A DNA stretch of 64,000 nt. Source: Eledone cirrhosa. Lineage: Eukaryota. The notes beneath the pieces are model-generated. The model saw nothing but the letters and a program-made list of their open reading frames with translations, was not told the DNA's origin and did not search any database. A program made the position numbers and the translations under genes. This document shows positions 24,515 through 62,352 of this stretch, in pieces; within the stretch, counting starts at the first letter, position 1; each line of letters begins with the position of its first letter. The stretch covers positions 228,160,001 to 228,224,000 of the forward strand of contig OZ024742.1 in assembly GCA_964016885.1 (NCBI GenBank). The letters are read 5' to 3'.

Positions 24515-25982
24515 CACATACACACACACATGTGTATAATATTACACAATCTTGTATGGATGTCACCTGACCTTTCTCGTAAAATAATGTCCATACAGGC
24601 ATGGAAAATACAAGTTAAACAGAACGGATTATATCTATAATATAAAAAAGGGAAGAGTGTGGGGAAGGGTCCGTTTTATATATTTTTTTATCCCGTTAGT
24701 AAAATAAGTTGGATTACCCTGAATAAATAATGAATCAATATTATGTAATTTATCTAAACTTTGTAGCTCTTGATTAAACATAAATATTCTTATATATAAA
24801 GTATTGCTTATTTTAAGATTCACTTCTCTAAAATTTTCAAATACTTCCGGTTAGTATCTGTTATATTATAACACTTATTACATCGCTTATATAAACATTC
24901 ATATATTTGCATCGTTATATAAGGTCGCTAATTTTCTACTTTTTCGTTTTCATAACATTTTAGTTTATTATTATGCATTTTATATATAATATCGTCTTTT
25001 CTTAAATGTATCATGGACTACGTTACTGATTACAGAAGAGAGTGTAACACAGACTTCATTCAATTTCTGTGCATAATGTCAATTACGATTTCATTTGACA
25101 TATCATATCTACATGCACATATATTTGCCTATAATATCAATATACACACTACACGTGCTAGCAGAAAACCACCTGAAGTGTGGTTTTCTGCTAGTATATA
25201 TAATGTTCTACAATCTAAATGTATAGCTGTAGTTTAACATATATATTATTACATAATCTTAGGTATATCTATAGTTTGATGTATGTTTAATATTATGAAT
25301 TTGTAGCTGTTGTTTAACATCTATATAGTATAAGGAGAGCAAGAGTTGTATGATATAGTGCTGAATACTTGAAGTGGAGTGGATAGAACCTGTGGAAGAG
25401 AGGGGACTAAGGAAGACAAAATTGTGAAGAAATACTGAACCTCACAGAGAAGATGACACAGAAAGGGGCTGAGTGGCAATATGCCATATTATGAAAGACT
25501 AATCCACTAGTGCAAGCATTGCAACATTAAATGTAAATGTGATGAAAGACAGCATTTGGAGATTGAGCTGACACACTGTAGGTTTGAGAAGAGTTTTCAA
25601 ACTGACCAAATATGTGTCAACCTTTCTAGTTCTTGTGTGACAAATGTTGATTAACATATGTAATGTCACACTATCTGGAGATATACCTGTATTTTAACAT
25701 ATATATAATGTTACATAATTTGAATGTGTAGCTGTAATGAGCATATGTATAATGTTAAATAACTTAAAGGTGTAGCAATTGTCTATAAATATATGGACTT
25801 CACAAAATATTGGATGTTATAATTTTAATTACAAATTAAGGAGTAAACTTCAATTGGTCTTGTAAATGTTTATATCTAGAGTTTATCAATATGGAAATGT
25901 AGTAAAATTTCCACTGTTATATCTCTACATTTTAGGTATCCTCTATATCTTATACAGTTTCTTTATTCTTCCAGAATATCAG

Positions 25983-27852
<1,870 letters not shown>

Positions 27853-28532
27853 AATGGAAAAAAGCCATATCAATGTGTTATCTGGTAAATCACTCTTTCA
27901 AAATTGTCTGTTAACTACACATGTATATTGTAATACATAAATTTAATTATATCAATGTGAAAACTCACTCGATAAAGAATATCTCATATCCATAAAAGTA
28001 TTCACACAACAAAGAAGATATCAATGTGTGATAACAATCCCCCCAATACTATCTTTCATAGCACAAATGGCTCAGAAATGTATTCTTGTAAATTAAGGAT
28101 AACACTGTACAGCTATCTTGTTAGAAATAAATAGATTCTTTCTAAATTGATAGATCTTCTATATATATATATCATCATTTTCCATGGTTTAGATGGGTTG
28201 TCATATTATGTGAAATAGCATGTTAGGTAACCATGTCTTGTTAGTACCAACCTGTTTTCGTCTTGGTTTCTATGACTGGGTGGCCTTCCTAACCACAATA
28301 TCATTACAGTGAAGACTGGGTGCTTTTATCGTGGCACTGAAACGACCATTACATTGGATGGAATAGGTGCTCCTTTTTGTCTTGCCACCAGCACAACCAC
28401 CTTACAGGGTGGACTGGTTGCTTTTGTGACATAAGCCCTATCACCATATAGGTTGAACCAACTGCTTTGACCAACAAGATGTGTGTACTTTTTTCTTTCT
28501 TTTCCTGTTTTTTTTTTAAATTTGTAATCTCC

Positions 28533-31641: not shown

Positions 31642-32287
31642 CTAATAAATGAATTTATTCAAAAGCAAAAAACAAACCTTATTTAGTAAGAAAAAATGAA
31701 AAGGGGAAAGAAAAGGAAAGAAAGAATAGGGAAATATAGAAGAAAAAAAGAGAGGAAAGAAGAAAAAGAATGGGAAAGGGAGGGGATGGCAAGAGCTCTG
31801 GTGTCGCAGAAGAGAGGGGGGGGGGGGTGATTGGGCTTTGGGCCTAGGGCAAGTGGGCAGGAAGTGCTGTGCCCCGCGGACAAGACGGCAAAAGCATTCC
31901 CACGGACGCTGGCCAGTGGCACCCGCTGCAACAGCCACCCAGCCTCGCGGGGCTCCCTCCTCAGACGGGCCGCCGACGCTCCGATCTTGCGGAGAAGCTC
32001 GGCAGTACGGGGTCCAAGTACGCCTGAGGTCTCGACGGCGGCCGGACAAACGCCGGGGTTTGTGGTCGAAGCGACGAAGTTGGAGGCGGAGAACGTGTCG
32101 CAGCAGGTGGCGTCCCAGATGAGGGATCTACCTCCTTCGAATAGGAAGAGGGAGATCCCGCCAAGGCGCTTGCCATCTCCGGGGTCTAGGCCTGCTGGCT
32201 CCAGTTGAGATGGAAAGCCAGCTGCGTCCAGGCTTCTCAATATGTCATTGAGAGTGGCGTGTCGGGGAAACCGGCCTGCGCTCACGA
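31642..32287 (-). mobile_element. CRE-like retrotransposon 3' fragment (RLE)
   Basis: GRFPRHATLNDI, LEPAGLDPGDGKR, LIWDATCCDT, AVETSGVLGP, WLLQRV.LA.VRGNA. Confidence 0.85.
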
Positions 32288-32289
32288 CA

Positions 32290-32870
32290 TTCAGGAATAT
32301 GTGGGCGAAGAAGAAGGAGCAACTTGCGAAACGTCGAGTAGCAACAGAGATTAATCTCAGTAAAACAAGCAAATAGATAGGATAGAGTGTCAAAAACAGA
32401 TAGATATAGTTATTTTACACACACGTACATACAATGATGTTATATCAACACACAACACTGAGATTTCGTAAATACGCATGATCAACCGGATGTTGACTTC
32501 ATTCTCCGCCTGTCGTTTATAAAGAATATTTCAATATTATTTTTATCCATCTGTACAATAAATCTGTTTAATATGTAACATAAGTAGTCATATTTATCTA
32601 ATATATATAGGGAGAATGAAAGACTGTAGGACAGAGAGAATACTCGTAATTATTCTCCATTCAACAAAATGTCCAACCGCCAGTACTGATTCTCCAAAAA
32701 TAGCTGTATAAATATACAAGGTATTTTATCTTAAAGTTCTTTTCTTTATTCATTCGTAGGATGGAGCAAATTATTTTTATCACGAAGATATATATACTAT
32801 ATTATACAACACAAAGACAAAAACAAACTTTCATTCATTATTCACATTTCTTCACTCTCTTGCCATATCC
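32290..32870 (+). repeat. Segmentally duplicated upstream block of ZNF paralog B (paralogous to 54625-54686 plus 56374-56905)
   Basis: Collinear near-identity, e.g. gagtagcaacagagattaatctcagtaaaaca and catgatcaaccggatgttgacttcatt. Confidence 0.85.
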
Positions 32871-37258: not shown

Positions 37259-37665
37259 CATATTTTACCATATATATCATGTTACATAATTTGAATGTGT
37301 AGCTGTAATGAGCATATGTTTAATGTTAAATAACTTAAAGGTGTAGCAATTGTCTATAAATATGTGAACTTCACAATTTTATTTACAAATCAAGAAGTAA
37401 ACTTCAATTGGTCTTGTAAATGTTTATATCTAGAGTTTATCAATATGGAAATGTAGTAAAATTTCCAGTGTTATATCTCTACATTTTAGGTATCCTCTAT
37501 ATCTTATACAGTTTCTTTATTCTTTCAGAATATCAGATGACATTGGTATTAAAGAAATCTTTACATCAGATACATCACCAATATTTATCATCTTTTAAAT
37601 ACTAAAAGAAGACATTATACAGAATGTACAGAACAGATATAAAAATAGAGTGAAAACGATATATT

Positions 37666-39174
37666 ATGGAAAATGAATTATGGGAGGAACAGCTGAAGAT
37701 TAAGACAGAGACTGAAAATAATGGTTCTCTTGATGAGGTACTGAATGAGATAGGAAAAACCTCATACCATTATGATATCTGTGGTAAACCATTCTCCACA
37801 AACTGTCAACTAATTTTACACAGATATATTCATACACAACAAAAGCCATATCATTGTGATATCTGTGGTAAATCATTCTCTACAAATAGTGTTTTAACTG
37901 TACACAAATGTATTCATACAGGTGAAAAACCATATTACTGTGACATCTGTGGTAAATCATTCTCTAACAGAAGTTACTTAACTGTACACAAACGTATTCA
38001 TACAGGAGAAAAGCCATATCATTGTGATATTTGTGGTAAATCATTCTCTACACATACACAATTAACTACACACAAACGTGTTCATACAGGAGAGAAGCCA
38101 TATAACTGTGATATCTGTGGCAAATCATTCTCCTCAGGGGCTTCTTTGTGCAAGCATAAACGTATTCATACAGGAGAGAAGCCATATCATTGCAATATCT
38201 GTGGTAAATCTTTCTCTGGAAGGGGTGAATTAAATACACACAAGCATATTCATACAGGAGAGAAGCCATATCACTGTGATATCTGTGGTAAATCATTCTC
38301 TCGGGGAAGTAACTTAAATAAACACAAGTATGTTCATACTGGAGAGAAACACTTTCACTGTGATATCTGTGGTAAATCATTCTCTACTAGTAGTATTTTA
38401 ACGGGACATAAACGTCTTCATGCAGGAGAGAAGCCATATCACTGTGACATCTGTGGTAAATCATTCTCTAGCAGAACTCACAATTGCATTCATAAACGAG
38501 AGAAGCCATATAACTGTGACATATGTGGAAAATCATACACTAGCGGATGTAACTTAAAGATACACAAACGTACTCATACAGGAGAAAAGCCATATCACTG
38601 TGACATCTGTGGTAAATCAGTCACTCAGAGTGGAACATTAACTCTACACAAACGTACTCATACAGGAGAGAAGCCATATCCCTGTGATATCTGTGGTAAA
38701 TCTTTCTCTCGAAATGGTGACTTATCTAAACACAAACGTGTTCATACAGGAGAAAAGTTGAACCTTTGTGATATTTGTGGTAAATCATTCTCTCATACAA
38801 ATGCATTAACTAGACATAAACACATTCACACAGGAGAGAAGCCATATCACTGTGATATCTGTGGTAAATCATTCTCTAATAAAACTCATTTAACAAATCA
38901 CATCCGCATTCATACAGGAGAGAGACCAAATCTTTGTGGCATTTGTGGTAAATCTTTCTCTCAAAGTTGTGACTTGATTCGTCACAAACGCACTCATACA
39001 GGAGAGAGGCCATACCACTGTGACATTTGTGATAAATCATTCTCTAGCAGTGCTCACAATCGTATTCATACAGGAGAAAAACCGTATCACTGTGATATAT
39101 GTGATAAATCATATCCTAAAAGTCGATCTTTAACTATACACAAAAAGCGCATTCATACTGCAAAAGACCTTTGA
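37666..39174 (+). CDS. C2H2 zinc-finger protein paralog B (502 aa, ~17 finger units)
   Basis: Intact [18 protein letters not shown] followed by tandem CxxC...HxxxH with TGEKPY linkers; acceptor tctttcag at 37528 conserved in paralogs. Confidence 0.9.
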
Positions 39175-54645: not shown

Positions 54646-54686
54646 CAGCCTGCGAAACGCCGAGTAGCAACAGAGATTAATCTCAG

Positions 54687-56365
54687 GGCGATATCCAATT
54701 TTAGCGGCATTTAGGCCGCTTACTTGCTGCAGTTGCTGCTTACTTCAATGTATGAGGCTATTCCAACAAATTTACATTCCCCCTTTTTTTAGCCGTTAAA
54801 AGAAATATAGATTTTTTTTTTTTTTTTTTTTTTTTGGCGATTTATTAGTGTTTGAAAGTAATCGGTTCCGAGCCATAAATTCGATAATACTGAGTTTGTT
54901 TGCAGTTAAAATCGCCAGTTCCCTCATTTTCAAATCCATATTTAACGTCTGCTGTGATGAATTAACATTTTCAACAATGAAAATTGGTGCAGGTGGACGT
55001 CCAGGCATTTTCTTTATTCAGAATTTCAGTTTAAAATCAATTAGAACTATGTTATTTCACCTTTAACAATATCTGCATTGAAATGACCGGCAGGGAGTTA
55101 TGCCAATTCGTGGAAAATACTCAAAGATTATGTATATTAATATAAGTTTCACTTTATGAATTTCAGTTTAAAATCAATTATAAGATAATCACCGACAGAG
55201 GGCTAATATTTATAATTTTGGGTTATTTTCCACAATAAAGTGAAACTTATATTAATATACATAATCTATACGATATATGCCTGTTAATTATCAGCACTCT
55301 ACAATGAATCATTCACTAAATTTTGTCGATCCGGTATCAGGAACGCATACCCAACATATTGAAGGACTCTGGTCTCATGCCAAAAAAAAAAATAAGCGGC
55401 ACCAGCCGACCCATGTTTCAGTCATATTTGAATGAATTCATGTGGCGGTGGCGAAATGACAGCTTTGAGTGGAGACAGTAGATGTTTCCCAAAGATTTTA
55501 AACTGTATATCGGAACAATATATTGTTTAAAAAAATATTTTTTTCTTTTTTATTGTTGCGATATACAGTTTAAAATTTGCTTCCAAAAGTCCAAAAAGAT
55601 ATAAATCTTTAAAAAAATTATAATAATTCTTTATTATTATTTTCTTTTTCTGTAAATAATTATTTTTCTATATATCTCAAACCCTGCCAAACACCACATC
55701 TGTCCATCTGTAAATTTAAATGACTGTTCTTTCATACTTATCCTCTTCAACTACACATGGATATTTGTCTTACTGTGGAGAAGGAATTAGAAACAATTTT
55801 ATCAAAATTCACTGCTATTCGGAAACATACAAAGCGAACTTTGGGTGACATACTAACTTCTGTTGATAATATAAGGAAAGAAATCAGTGAAGGTATTTAT
55901 TACATTTTAATTGCATTTTTATTACAACCACTAATACTTACTATTATACCGAGGGGCCCTGCCCGTTCGGGAAAGGCTCTAGACACGAATTCCGGGACGG
56001 AAACCCCTTGGAAAAGAAATGTCCCAGATGCGTTTGCAACGAGGAAACTGTGGGGATATGTCGCCGGCCAACAAATGGTCCTCTTGGAGAAAAAGGCACT
56101 CAGTCCCAGCCAATTCCATGAAAGATGGGTGAAAGTAGCAATAATGGCCCGTGTACGTGGGCCATCTCTCTATATCGGCTTGTACAGGTAAGAGAAGAAG
56201 GGAGCACCCCCCTCTCTAATAAATCGCCAAAAAAAAAAAAAATCTATATTTCTTTTAACGGCTAAAAAAAGGGGGGGGGGGGGATGTAAATTTGTTGGAA
56301 TAGCCTCATACATTGAAGTCAGCAGCAAGTAAGCGGCATTTAGGCCGCTAAAATTGGATATCGCC
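54687..56365. mobile_element. Merlin DNA transposon derivative (1679 bp) carrying a captured host exon
   Basis: ~150-bp TIRs starting GGCGATATCCAATTTTAGCGGC; TSD AATCTCAG (54679-54686, 56366-56373); transposase remnant NHSLNFVDPVSGTHTQHIEGLWSHAK...FQSYLNEFMWR at ~55307-55448. Confidence 0.9.
55757..55892 (+). pseudogene. RMND5A: RMND5/GID2-like first coding exon captured within Merlin element
   Basis: MDICLTVEKELETILSKFTAIRKHTKRTLGDILTSVDNIRKEISE resembles RMND5A N-terminus (MDQCVTVERELEKVLHKF...); phase-1 donor AG|GTATTT at 55893. Confidence 0.7.
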
Positions 56366-57209
56366 AATCTCAGTAAAACAGGCAAATAGATAGATAAGAC
56401 AGAGTGTCAAAAACAGATAGATAGATATAATTATTTTGCACACACTTACAATGAAGTGTGTGTGTATTAAATCAAGACACAACACTGAGATTTCGTAAAT
56501 ACGCATGATCAACCGGATGTTGACTTCATTTTCAGCCTGTTGTATATAAAGGATATTTCAACATTATTTTTATGCATCTGTACAGTAAATCTATTTAGTA
56601 TATAACGTAAGTAGCCATATTTATCTAATATATATAGGGAGAAGGAATTACTGTAGGACAGAGGGAGAAATAGAGAATATTGGTAATTATTCTCCATTCA
56701 ACAAAATGTCCAACCGCCAGTACTGATTGACCAACAATAGTTGTATAAATATACAAGGTATTTTATCTTCTTAAAGTTGTTTTCTTTATTTAATCGTAGG
56801 ATGGAGCAAATCATTTTTATCACGAACATATATATTCTATATACAACACAAAGACAAAAACAAACTTCCATTCATTATTCACATTTCTTCACTCTCTTAC
56901 CATATTCCATAAAAGCGGCTTTGGTGAAAGAAAGCCTTCGTCCCGTGTCAGCAGGCATTCAGTTTAGTGGCAATATGCCCTATTACGAAAGACTAGTCCA
57001 CTAGTGCAAGCATTGCAACACTAAAATAAATGTGATGAAAGACTGAAGATTACAGCATTTGGGGATTGAGCTGATGCACTGTAGGTTTGAGAAGAGTCTT
57101 CAGACTCACCAAATATGTGTCAACCTCTCTAGTTCTTGTGTGACAAATCTTGATTATCATATGTAATGTCACACTATCTGAAGATATACCTGTATTTCAA
57201 CATATATAT

Positions 57210-58960: not shown

Positions 58961-59643
58961 TCAAAGTAGTAGTGGGTATGTAATAATTATTTTTAACTAG
59001 CGTTCTTAGAATGGCTACACTTTTGTGAGTGTATGTGTGTGCAAGTGTGTGTATGTGTATGTGAATGTTTTTGTGTGAGTATGTGTGTCAGTATTTCTGT
59101 GTCTGAGTGTTTGTGTGTCTGACTGTATGTTGTGTGAGTATGTGTATGTGTTGTCCAAGGAGCCAAGTCCCTAGCAATATCGAAATAAATTAAAATTATC
59201 AAGAATATAAAACGGCCACAGTTGAAAGGTATATACAAATACACATCTTCTCTTTAACCGTCATCTTTGACAGCACAGAGACAGCTAGTATATATAATGT
59301 TAAATAACTTAAAAGTGTAGCAATTGACTATAAATATACAAACATCACAAAATATTGGATGTTATAATTTTATTTACAAATTAAGAAGTAAACTTCAATT
59401 GGTCTTGTAAATGGTTATATCTAGAGTTTATCAATTATAGAAATGTAGTAAAATTTCCACCATTATATCTTTACATTTTAGGTATCCTCTATATCTTATA
59501 CAGTTTCTTTATTCTTCCAGAATATCAGATGACATTGGTATTAATGAAATCTTTACATCAGATACATCATTGATATTTATCATCTTTTAAATACAATAGG
59601 AAGATATTATACAGATATAAAAAGAAGAGAAAAAAGAAAAATT

Positions 59644-62352
59644 ATGGAAAATAATTTATGGGAGGAACAGCTGAAAATTAAGACAGAGTCTGAAAGAAAT
59701 GATTTTCCTGGCGAGTTACTGAATGAGATAGGAAAATCATCATACCATTGTGATGTCTGTGGTAAATCATTCTCTCACAATGACACTTTAACTATACACA
59801 AACGTGTACATACAGGTGAGGAACCATATCATTGTGATATTTATGGGAAACCATTCTCTGAAGGAAGTAACTTAAACATACACAAACCTGTTCATACTGC
59901 AGAGAAAGAATTTCACTGTGATATCTGTGGTAAATCATTCTCTAGAAGTAGTGTTTTAACTGGACATAAACATATTCATACAGGAGAGAAGCCATATCAC
60001 TGCGATGTCTGTAATAAATCATACAAAGAAAGAGGTGCTTTAACTATACACAAAAGCACTCATACAGGAAGACCTTATCCCTGTGATATCTGTGGTAAAA
60101 CATTTTCTAGACATGGTCAATTAATTATACACAAAAGTATTCATACAGGAGAGAAGCCATATCACTGTGACATCTGTGGTAAATCATTCTCTACAAGTAC
60201 TATTTTATCTTCACATAAACGTATTCATACCGGAGAGAAGCCATATCATTGTGATATTTGTGGTAAATCATTCTCTGGAAGTGGTGAACTTGAAAGACAC
60301 AGGAATATTCATACAGGAGAGAAGCCATATCATTGTGATATTTGTGATAAATCATTCTCTGGAAGTAGTGACTTAAAAAGACACAAGCATATTCATACAG
60401 AAGAGAAACCATATGACTGTAGCATCTGTGGTAAATTGTTCTCTAGCAGAGGTTGCTTAACTATACACAAGCGTATTCATACAGGAGAAAAGCCATATCA
60501 CTGTGTTATCTGTGGTAAATCATTTGCTCAAAATGGGAGCTTAACTGTACACAAACGTGTACATACAGGAGAAAAGCCATATCACTGTGATGTGTGTGGT
60601 AAATCATTCTCTAGAAAAACTCACAGTTGTTTTCGTGCAGGAGAGAAGCCATTTGACTGTTGTTACTGTGGTAAATCATTCTCAAGCAGAACTCACAATT
60701 GTGTTCATAAACGAAAGAAGCCATATCACTGTGACATCTGTGGTAAATCATTCTCTACAAGTACTATTTTATCTTTACATAAACGTATTCATACCGGAGA
60801 GAACCCATATCATTGTGATATTTGTGGTAAATCATTCTCTGGAAGTAGTGACTTAAAAAGACACAAGCATATTCATACAGGAGAAAAGCCATATCGCTGT
60901 ATTATCTGTGGTAAATCATTTGCTCAAAATGGGAGCTTAACTGTACACAAACGTGTACATACAGGAGAAAAGCCATATCACTGTGATGTGTGTGGTAAAT
61001 CATTCTCAAGCAGAACTCACAATTGTGTTCATAAACGAAAGAAGCCATATCACTGTGACATCTGTGGTAAATCATTCTCTACAAGTACTGTTTTATCTTT
61101 ACATAAACGTATTCATACCGGAGAGAACCCATATCATTGTGATATTTGTGGTAAATCATTCTCTGGAAGTGGTGACCTTAAAAGACACAGGAATATTCAT
61201 ACAGGAGAGAAGCCATATCATTGTGATATTTGTGGTAAATCATTCTCTGGAAGTAGTGACTTAAAAAGACACAAGCATATTCATACAGGAGAGAAACCAT
61301 ATGACTGTAGCATCTGTGGTAAATTGTTCTCTAGCAGAGGTTGCTTAACTATACACAAGCGTATTCATACAGGAGAAAAGCCATATCACTGTGTTATCTG
61401 TGGTAAATCATTTGCTCAAAATGGGAGCTTAACTGTACACAAACGTGTACATACAGGAGAAAAGCCATATCACTGTGATGTGTGTGGTAAATCATTCTCT
61501 AGAAAAACTCACAGTTGTTTTCGTGCAGGAGAGAAGCCATTTGACTGTTGCCATTGTGGTAAATCATTCTCAAGCAGAACTCACAATTGTGTTCATAAAC
61601 AAGAGAAGCCATATCACTGTGACATCTGTGGTAAATCATTTTCCCACAGAAGTGACTTAACTATACATGAACGTATTCATACAGGGGAAAAACCATATTA
61701 CTGTGACATCTGTGGTAAGTCATTCACTCAGACTGGAACATTAAGTGGACACAAACTTACTCATACAGGAGAGAAGCCATATCATTGTGATATCTGTGGT
61801 AAATCTTTCTCTCGAAATGGTGACTTATCTAAACATAAACTTGTTCATACAGGAGCCAAGTTGAAACTTTGTGATATCTGTGGTCAGTCATTCTCTCATA
61901 CAAATGCCTTAACTAGACATAAACGCATTCACACAGGAGAGAAGCCATATCACTGTGATATCTGTGGTAAATCATTCTCTAATAAAACTCATTTAACAAA
62001 TCACATCCGCATTCATACAGGAGAGAGACCATATCTTTGTGGCATCTGTGGTAAATCTTTCTCTCAAAGTGGTGACTTGATTCGTCACAAACGCACGCAT
62101 ACAGGAGAGAAGCGATATCACTGTGACATCTGTGATAAATCATTCTCTAGCAGTGCTCACAATCGCATTCATACAAGAGAGAAGCTATATCACTGTGACA
62201 TCTGCAGTAAATCATTCTATACACATACTAAATTAACTAAACACAAATGTATTCATACAGAAGAGAAGTCATATCACTGTGATATATGTGATAAATCATA
62301 TCCTAAAAGTAGATCTTTAACTCAACACAAGTGCATTGATACTGCAAAATAG
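59644..62352 (+). CDS. C2H2 zinc-finger protein paralog C (902 aa, ~32 finger units)
   Basis: Intact [18 protein letters not shown] plus finger array; acceptor ttcttccag at 59520. Confidence 0.9.

Follow-up and report, generated by a model that had tools for sequence, protein, structure and literature searches.

In Eledone cirrhosa, a family of Merlin transposons carries the first coding exon of the host gene RMND5 behind its transposase. The exon was probably picked up once, by template switching in DNA repair, and then spread to dozens of sites, most likely as a neutral passenger. This is a real and well supported case of Pack-TIR gene capture in an unusually high-copy variant, with a relay from Merlin to a hAT transposon. 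One member lies in the window, as we call the whole 64,000-nucleotide stretch of DNA analysed here.

The Merlin-family insertion in the window occupies 54687-56365 (1679 bp), starting with GGCGATATCC and ending with its complement, GGATATCGCC (Table 1). Its terminal inverted repeats (TIRs) consist of four inverted arms of 44, 51, 47 and 27 nt, 91-100% complementary, which cover 54687-54848 and 56216-56365 and are interrupted by homopolymer and short indels only. Thus the preliminary description, which had claimed TIRs of ~150 bp and an exact target-site duplication (TSD) of 8 bp, was correct: the TIRs are ~150-160 bp long with GGCGATATCC ends, as expected of Merlin, and AATCTCAG stands on both sides. 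Among left ends of the family, 50 of 73 have an exact 8-bp duplication at the downstream right end and none has one at 7 or 9 bp, so the TSD is not a chance match, although this tally counts one element twice and includes eight hAT-nested copies with one TSD in common. Eight further elements of the family show an 8-bp TSD with one mismatch. When the element is removed, its flanks align to 32276-32593 at 84% identity (280/334) with one AATCTCAG at the junction, which is the empty site that had been reported in the paralogous zinc-finger (ZNF) block. This block is 84-86% identical, whereas sister copies of the element elsewhere are 95-98% identical, suggesting that the insertion is younger than the local ZNF duplication, as had been proposed.

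Table 1 Features of the Merlin-family insertion and its empty site, in window positions
Feature	Position	Strand	Remarks
Empty paralogous site	32341..32370	+	window flanks minus element align across a single AATCTCAG
Left TSD, 8 bp	54679..54686	+	AATCTCAG; single copy at empty site 32353-32360
Left TIR	54687..54848	+	corresponds to the right end of full-length copy L147, inverted
Inverted 5′ part of Merlin transposase ORF, N-terminal ~55 codons	54846..55027	-	97% identity to L147, reversed
Merlin 5′ hairpin region, non-coding; likely promoter region	55021..55267	.	contains the inversion breakpoint
Merlin transposase 3′ remnant	55268..55529	+	third catalytic block HTQHIEGLW, then YLNEFMWRW; frameshifted
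Captured RMND5 upstream sequence, likely 5′ UTR	55603..55756	+	aligns to G000:C5:79536166-79536335; family-wide 16-bp loss
Captured RMND5 first coding exon	55757..55892	+	45 codons + phase-1 G; GT donor at 55893-4
Captured start of RMND5 intron 1	55893..55940	+	48 bp here, ~85 bp in full-length copies
Second cargo: 3′ end of an abundant LINE (RT + zf-RVT), with an internal deletion	55941..56216	+	
Right TIR	56216..56365	-	first AATAAA past the transposase stop at 56218
Right TSD	56366..56373	+	AATCTCAG, exact match to left copy

The surroundings of the element hold further features. A cargo-free MITE of the same Merlin family (L158, 53962-54470, 509 bp) lies 216 bp upstream of it and has its own 8-bp TSD, AAATTCAG, which differs from, yet resembles, AATCTCAG. 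There are also three tandem C2H2 zinc-finger genes with a single long exon each (25866-28066, 37654-39171 and 59548-62349; 72-87% alike), and a conserved block is found ~350 bp ahead of each of the three ORFs.

The window copy is a deleted and partly inverted derivative with two right ends, an inverted 5′ part, a deleted catalytic core and a single exon. The arms of its hairpin (55125-55157 and 55235-55267) match at 100%, and the hairpin region maps upstream of the transposase ATG in L147. The IS1595/Merlin transposase remnant noticed earlier is indeed present, with the blocks HTQHIEGLW and YLNEFMWRW in different frames at 55301-55460. Neither of the two transposase pieces of the window matched Pfam when searched alone; they are short and contain the last catalytic block only. 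Their DNA is, however, 95-96% identical to sister copies that score over the cut-off for DDE_Tnp_IS1595: pieces from L055, L123 and L073 did so (three of the four tested), with matches to PF12762 at E 1.6e-13 and 4.3e-11, and the D, D, E blocks IDESK, TDRW and HIEGLW are present in L055. Matches to the N-terminal Zn_Tnp_IS1595, which is usually absent in Merlin with exceptions reported, were weak and below cut-off (E 0.0048 and 0.095). On sequence features, namely the GG-starting TIRs, the 8-bp TSD and the transposase domain of the sister copies, the element can be assigned to the Merlin superfamily, in agreement with the original classification.

The open exon described before, from the ATG at 55757 to the G at 55892 and followed by a GT donor, encodes a 45-aa peptide that had been said to resemble the N-terminus of RMND5A/GID2. 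The resemblance turned out to be genuine: 37 of the 45 residues are identical to those of the parent exon on contig C5 (79536336-79536471), which encodes residues 1-45 of the 401-aa RMND5. The parent gene has nine collinear exons (C5:79536336-79558761) covering residues 1-401 of the protein P0001 at 82-98% identity, and AG/GT is canonical wherever an exon boundary was determined, at five ends and four starts. P0001 comes from a protein cluster named RMND5A in Octopus and Argonauta, the cluster closest to the parent gene, and has a CTLH domain over the cut-off and a weak RING match. A CTLH search of the genome gave seven matches, the pair on C5 matching human RMND5A at E 3e-16, and the parent first exon lies 9.4 kb upstream of this pair. 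Searches with the window peptide point the same way. In PDB the best and only match was human RMND5A (8pjn_b residues 1-43, E 0.018), and an exhaustive protein search gave 71 matches, the best 82% identical; two full-length matches were looked up and both are named RMND5. A word-index protein search returned nothing among 12 candidates. A laminin coiled-coil identity of the peptide was rejected, the Pfam match being sub-threshold. Splicing of the captured donor into the downstream zinc-finger gene was also rejected as an RMND5-ZNF fusion: joined to 59520, the sole acceptor in the scan before the ZNF ORF, the product stops after 62 aa.

The cargo match to the RMND5 locus is confined to 55603-55940, which aligns to C5:79536166-79536519 at 88%. 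Because 154 bp of upstream sequence and 48-85 bp of intron are retained, the piece was captured from DNA and not from mRNA. The expectation that 55650-56200 would match the 5′ UTR, exon and intron of the parent was borne out for the upstream sequence, the exon and the start of the intron, but not for 55941-56216, which has no match at the parent locus and is the end of a LINE. At L050:6058-6066 (G000:C5 ~79536060), ~275 bp ahead of the RMND5 ATG, there is an CCGGAAGT motif, which we take to be ETS-like. It falls just outside the captured piece, so that the core promoter of RMND5 may not have been taken.

Longer copies of the second cargo match zf-RVT (E 1.8e-9). Free copies of this LINE, presumably of L1/Tx1 type, are 84-86% identical to the cargo in 37 of 40 scored matches, have RVT_1 upstream, and align from a 5′ truncation point into their own 3′ UTR. 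The intron of RMND5 is joined to the LINE at a 5-bp GACAT microhomology. The 2110 candidates obtained for the element were rejected as a copy number, since the LINE part alone gives 3924.

The exon is by no means the only genomic copy, a possibility raised at the outset. When a 37-mer taken from its ATG was searched against the genome, 98 exact matches were obtained (control 0), falling in 67 clusters including the parent. We examined 84 loci, comprising 66 of these clusters and loci from other searches, and found the exon (at least 40 nt) in 81 of them, in 129 copies and in both orientations at 46 loci; the counts of loci and copies are lower bounds because three more exon-bearing loci were seen outside the 84. 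The 58 bounded elements, 41 of which have the exon marker, show 50 different TSD strings. With the complete parent gene on C5 and copies with TSDs at dozens of sites, the capture of a host exon by Merlin that had been proposed is confirmed. The family thus shows what defines a Pack-TIR: a host fragment between TIRs with a parent locus elsewhere, capture at the DNA level, and transposition after capture. Transcription or chimeric RNA is common among Pack-TIRs but does not define them.

Full-length members are represented by L147 (C10:5283220-5286113; 2894 bp, TSD with one mismatch) and L123, which have the order TIR, 5′ hairpin, transposase, RMND5 upstream/exon/intron start, LINE 3′ end and TIR, with ~65-120 bp common to both ends. 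RMND5 sequence lies downstream in all of the best 17 transposase matches (at least 89% identity; 16 elements) except L149, a fragment without ends. Thus the transposase-bearing form already had the exon, which is not confined to a non-autonomous derivative. No copy seen, that of the window included, is autonomous. None of 13 Merlin transposase copies is intact, the longest ORF running 283 aa to the first stop, so that an autonomous progenitor can only be inferred. No cargo-free progenitor was found in the family, leaving the capture step itself unobserved, and none of 11 fetched relatives at ~70% transposase identity carries the RMND5 piece or the family TIRs.

Derivatives most often take the form of a ~1.7-kb palindrome (TIR-LINE-exon / exon-LINE-TIR), which contains the exon twice and is flanked by an 8-bp TSD of its own. 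Cataloguing the cargo by way of the TIRs, as had been suggested, revealed no other host cargo in 20 further TIR-anchored loci, within a survey of one TIR variant and 100 of its 144 exact matches. These loci contained only family parts or nested insertions, which are presumably retroelement, Penelope-like or helicase-like.

Several single loci deserve mention. L212 (G000:C11:53551045-53554872) is a 3.8-kb palindrome of the whole element with two head-to-head transposase copies and one TSD, and it might be a natural silencing locus for the Merlin family. In L055 (G000:C1:177671001-177680000), a Merlin copy without its left end lies between two near-identical opposed RT/GIY-YIG-like ORFs, one of them open for 876 codons, which we assume to be Penelope-like. 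Two family members (L061:1447-3354 and L058:2610-3089; C2, C28) have landed at or close to the end of copies of a different transposase gene, presumably hAT-like, and L061 has its TSD, TTAACTTT, in common with L143. At L081:1715-4730, an RMND5 palindrome has one of its arms interrupted by a 3-kb element that retains a PIF1-like helicase remnant and that we take to be Helitron-like. Across the genome, IS1595-type transposase matches number at least 150, and many of them lie in frames open for ~330 aa. Head-to-head pairs at C1:45.54 Mb, C28:102.76 Mb and C4:282.85 Mb show that other Merlin families also form palindromes, and such families may carry other cargo.

The copies have diagnostic changes in common, as expected if the exon was captured once. 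Six substitutions in the exon (K13T, L21I, Q26K, A28T, A33P and K40R), several changes in the flanks and the 16-bp loss recur across the subfamilies, and the six exon substitutions and three of the flank occur in nearly all of 30 copies checked, where the column is present. The exon changes fall on the element side, because the Octopus RMND5 protein has the parental residue at all but one of the six sites. The copies diverge on average by 1.3% from the commonest letter and by 6.9% from the parent, and a tree of the cargo has a long parent branch and almost no resolution among copies. The cargo lasted in a master lineage for ~4% exon divergence before the sampled copies spread.

Private variants of the exon comprise 40 non-synonymous and 2 stop changes versus 11 synonymous ones, giving a site-corrected N/S ratio of 1.08. 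The fixed exon differences number six, and every one of them is non-synonymous; the neutral probability of this odd pattern is 0.78^6 = 0.22, so that positive selection on them was rejected as not significant. Seventy of 109 exon-spanning copies are full-length and open, and 24 more are shortened in frame; at such low divergence, mostly open exons need no selection, and the power to detect selection is little. The palindrome arms are no more alike within than between elements (1.80 versus 1.69%, and 1.48 versus 1.49%), showing no homogenisation, and arm conversion or selection for hairpins was rejected on this equal divergence. The copies are likely to drift neutrally, and judging from these patterns the cargo is best read as a passenger.

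One palindromic Merlin derivative landed in a hAT transposon and was then amplified again by it. Twelve palindromes with variant ends have one common TSD and the same flanks, and the nested ~1.3-kb palindrome sits within a ~4.45-kb hAT element, ~95 bp in from its 5′ end. This carrier has 15-bp ends and its own outer 8-bp TSDs, exact and different in seven of nine bounded copies. One of eight copies, L201 (G000:C28:45343221-45347685), has an open 883-aa hAT ORF, the domains of which exceed the cut-off (Dimer_Tnp_hAT PF05699, E 6e-10; DUF4371, E 1.6e-23). All 13 copies found with the start of the hAT transposase carry Merlin-derived sequence at the 5′ site, and an exact search with the site pattern gave 12 filled and no empty hAT sites. 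Counting L134 on C683 there are 14 hAT loci, 13 of them with the exon. The hAT copies differ on average by 1.15%, being a young family.

In the hAT cassette, the Merlin transposase is gone, the Merlin 5′ region adjoins the RMND5 start, and the exon has an in-frame loss of 45 nt. Its arms fold into a stem of ~280 bp (-431 kcal/mol, z -44). In all ten hAT copies that have both motifs, the proximal exon is 91 nt long and open, and its GT donor lies 515-546 nt before an acceptor-like site. When the exon was spliced in silico to this site, a TGA appeared two codons ahead of the ATG of the hAT transposase in 10 of 10 copies. A donor belonging to the hAT itself lies ~50 nt before the same acceptor, and the exon is lost from the arm next to the transposase in two of 13 copies.

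How the family came into being can be considered as follows. The retained intron and the diagnostic changes in common show a single capture from DNA, and in full-length members the RMND5 piece and the LINE end follow the transposase within one pair of TIRs. Capture probably proceeded by template switching or gap repair, as suggested by the GACAT junction and by the lack of any Merlin trace near the parent gene. Since no AATAAA or ATTAAA occurs until the far side of the cargo, the exon of full-length elements would fall in the 3′ UTR of the transposase. Later deletions and inversions produced the derivatives with two right ends, mostly the ~1.7-kb palindromes, which may have arisen by fold-back at the hairpins of the element; one ~1.3-kb palindrome entered the hAT 5′ end and was re-amplified there.

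Alternatively, the start of RMND5 on a donor chromosome may once have been flanked by Merlin ends, intron 1 perhaps containing the LINE by then, and the whole piece may have moved out together, as a composite or by end bypass. The cargo does lie between the transposase stop and the right end, where a 3′ transduction would put it, and the RMND5 piece and the LINE are contiguous in all full-length copies. However, 120 kb around the parent gene are free of a Merlin end or the LINE segment, the RMND5 piece being the only solid match to the element there, and the right end past the cargo is the family's own TIR, although a donor allele may have been lost. We therefore hold this route to be rather doubtful.

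The cargo might instead be functional, in that read-through of the palindromes would give hairpin RNA against RMND5 mRNA, and/or the Merlin 5′ region and exon would act as a promoter, 5′ exon or upstream ORF for the hAT. The exon stands in both orientations at 46 of the 81 loci, the predicted cassette stem is long and stable, copies have 22-55 exact 21-mers in common with the parent, and the uniform in-silico splice just ahead of the hAT transposase would fit such a role; cross-talk between captured fragments and donor genes has been reported in maize, in the portion of that study at hand (10.1101/777037). Nevertheless, the near-neutral N/S ratio, the arms that are not homogenised and the two hAT copies without the transposase-proximal exon speak against it, the hAT does not need the captured donor because it has its own, and conservation among copies only 1% apart is expected without selection. 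A functional cargo is thus unlikely. That there was no capture at all, and that the exon is the true start of the gene, the product of a segmental duplication or an error of assembly, is refuted by the complete parent gene on another contig, the 98 matches of the 37-mer, the copies at dozens of sites on many contigs, whose TSDs differ, and the empty paralogous site, and is practically out of the question. A single capture by template switching, followed by spread as a passenger, is the reading that we favor.

In a survey of 100 animals, 370 Pack-TIRs were found, mostly hAT and TcMariner; only four were multicopy, an example having three copies, and a template-switch origin (FoSTeST) was proposed (PMC8277862, Tan et al. 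2021). The main text of that survey does not name Merlin, which occurs once in its 12 supplement files as a column head, and its available species records include no cephalopods. As in the portions consulted of PMC8277862, our family has between its TIRs a piece of a host gene, a few hundred bp long, that was amplified with distinct TSDs; unlike the Pack-TIRs there, it is Merlin, occupies at least 81 loci and has its cargo in a transposase-bearing element. The same pages describe Foldback FB4/Ssk-FB4 of Drosophila, which is MULE-like and young, with a 9-10-bp TSD, and expressed with protein evidence. It likewise is a multicopy animal Pack element with long inverted repeats, but in our family the long inverted arms are the cargo itself, known here from sequence alone.

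Plant Pack-TYPE elements (Pack-MULE, -CACTA, -hAT, -PIF and -Mariner) are by definition non-autonomous, and Merlin does not occur in the accessible text of PMC8903248; the likeness to them is in exon plus intron taken from DNA, multi-part cargo and rearranged derivatives. Cargo in a complete element has its closest parallel, as far as the part of the report at hand goes, in a hAT element of the fungus Pseudocercospora fijiensis that captured histone H3 (PMC6710886). It too has housekeeping cargo in a transposase-bearing TIR element and many decaying copies with one or two cargoes per element, but there the hAT is the capturer, and the sections available describe neither a relay between superfamilies nor a palindrome.

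Merlin/IS1595 elements are characterized by TIRs of 24-462 bp starting 5′-GG, an 8-9-bp TSD and DDE_Tnp_IS1595, and are abundant in Octopus bimaculoides with 191 sequences (PMC8101967). Our family shares the GG-start TIRs, 8-bp TSD and transposase domain and differs in its host-gene cargo, which the accessible text of PMC8101967 does not describe; its sole match to "captur" is a reference title. Two recently active Merlin families of O. vulgaris are listed without comment in the available part of a repeat paper (PMC13282606), and Merlin is not mentioned in that of a review of large transposons (PMC6431247). A literature search found no Merlin gene capture and no "Pack-Merlin", in keeping with the earlier remark that no such case was known in cephalopods; Repbase, subscription journals, the appendices of PMC8101967 or bioRxiv supplements may hold an unremarked case.

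What is surprising is the superfamily involved, the number of copies, the palindromic form and the transfer to hAT. Merlin becomes one of the superfamilies that take up host genes, here in a lineage that the main animal survey did not cover, and its copy number greatly exceeds that of the few multicopy cases on record for animals. Its anatomy can be read step by step, from capture in a transposase-coding element through palindromes probably formed by fold-back to re-amplification by hAT, and the relay is a route by which an exon with an ATG and a splice donor can outlive the element that captured it. It seems improbable to us that the exon, once handed between superfamilies, was put to work as a source of RMND5 hairpin small RNAs or, with the Merlin 5′ region, as the promoter, first exon or uORF of the hAT. 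If this were true, hairpin small RNAs would act against the mRNA of a CTLH E3-ligase subunit, and a captured host exon would tune a still-intact transposon. In any case, the many near-perfect hairpins of a conserved E3-ligase exon offer an animal test case for the conflict over donor-gene silencing that was described in maize.
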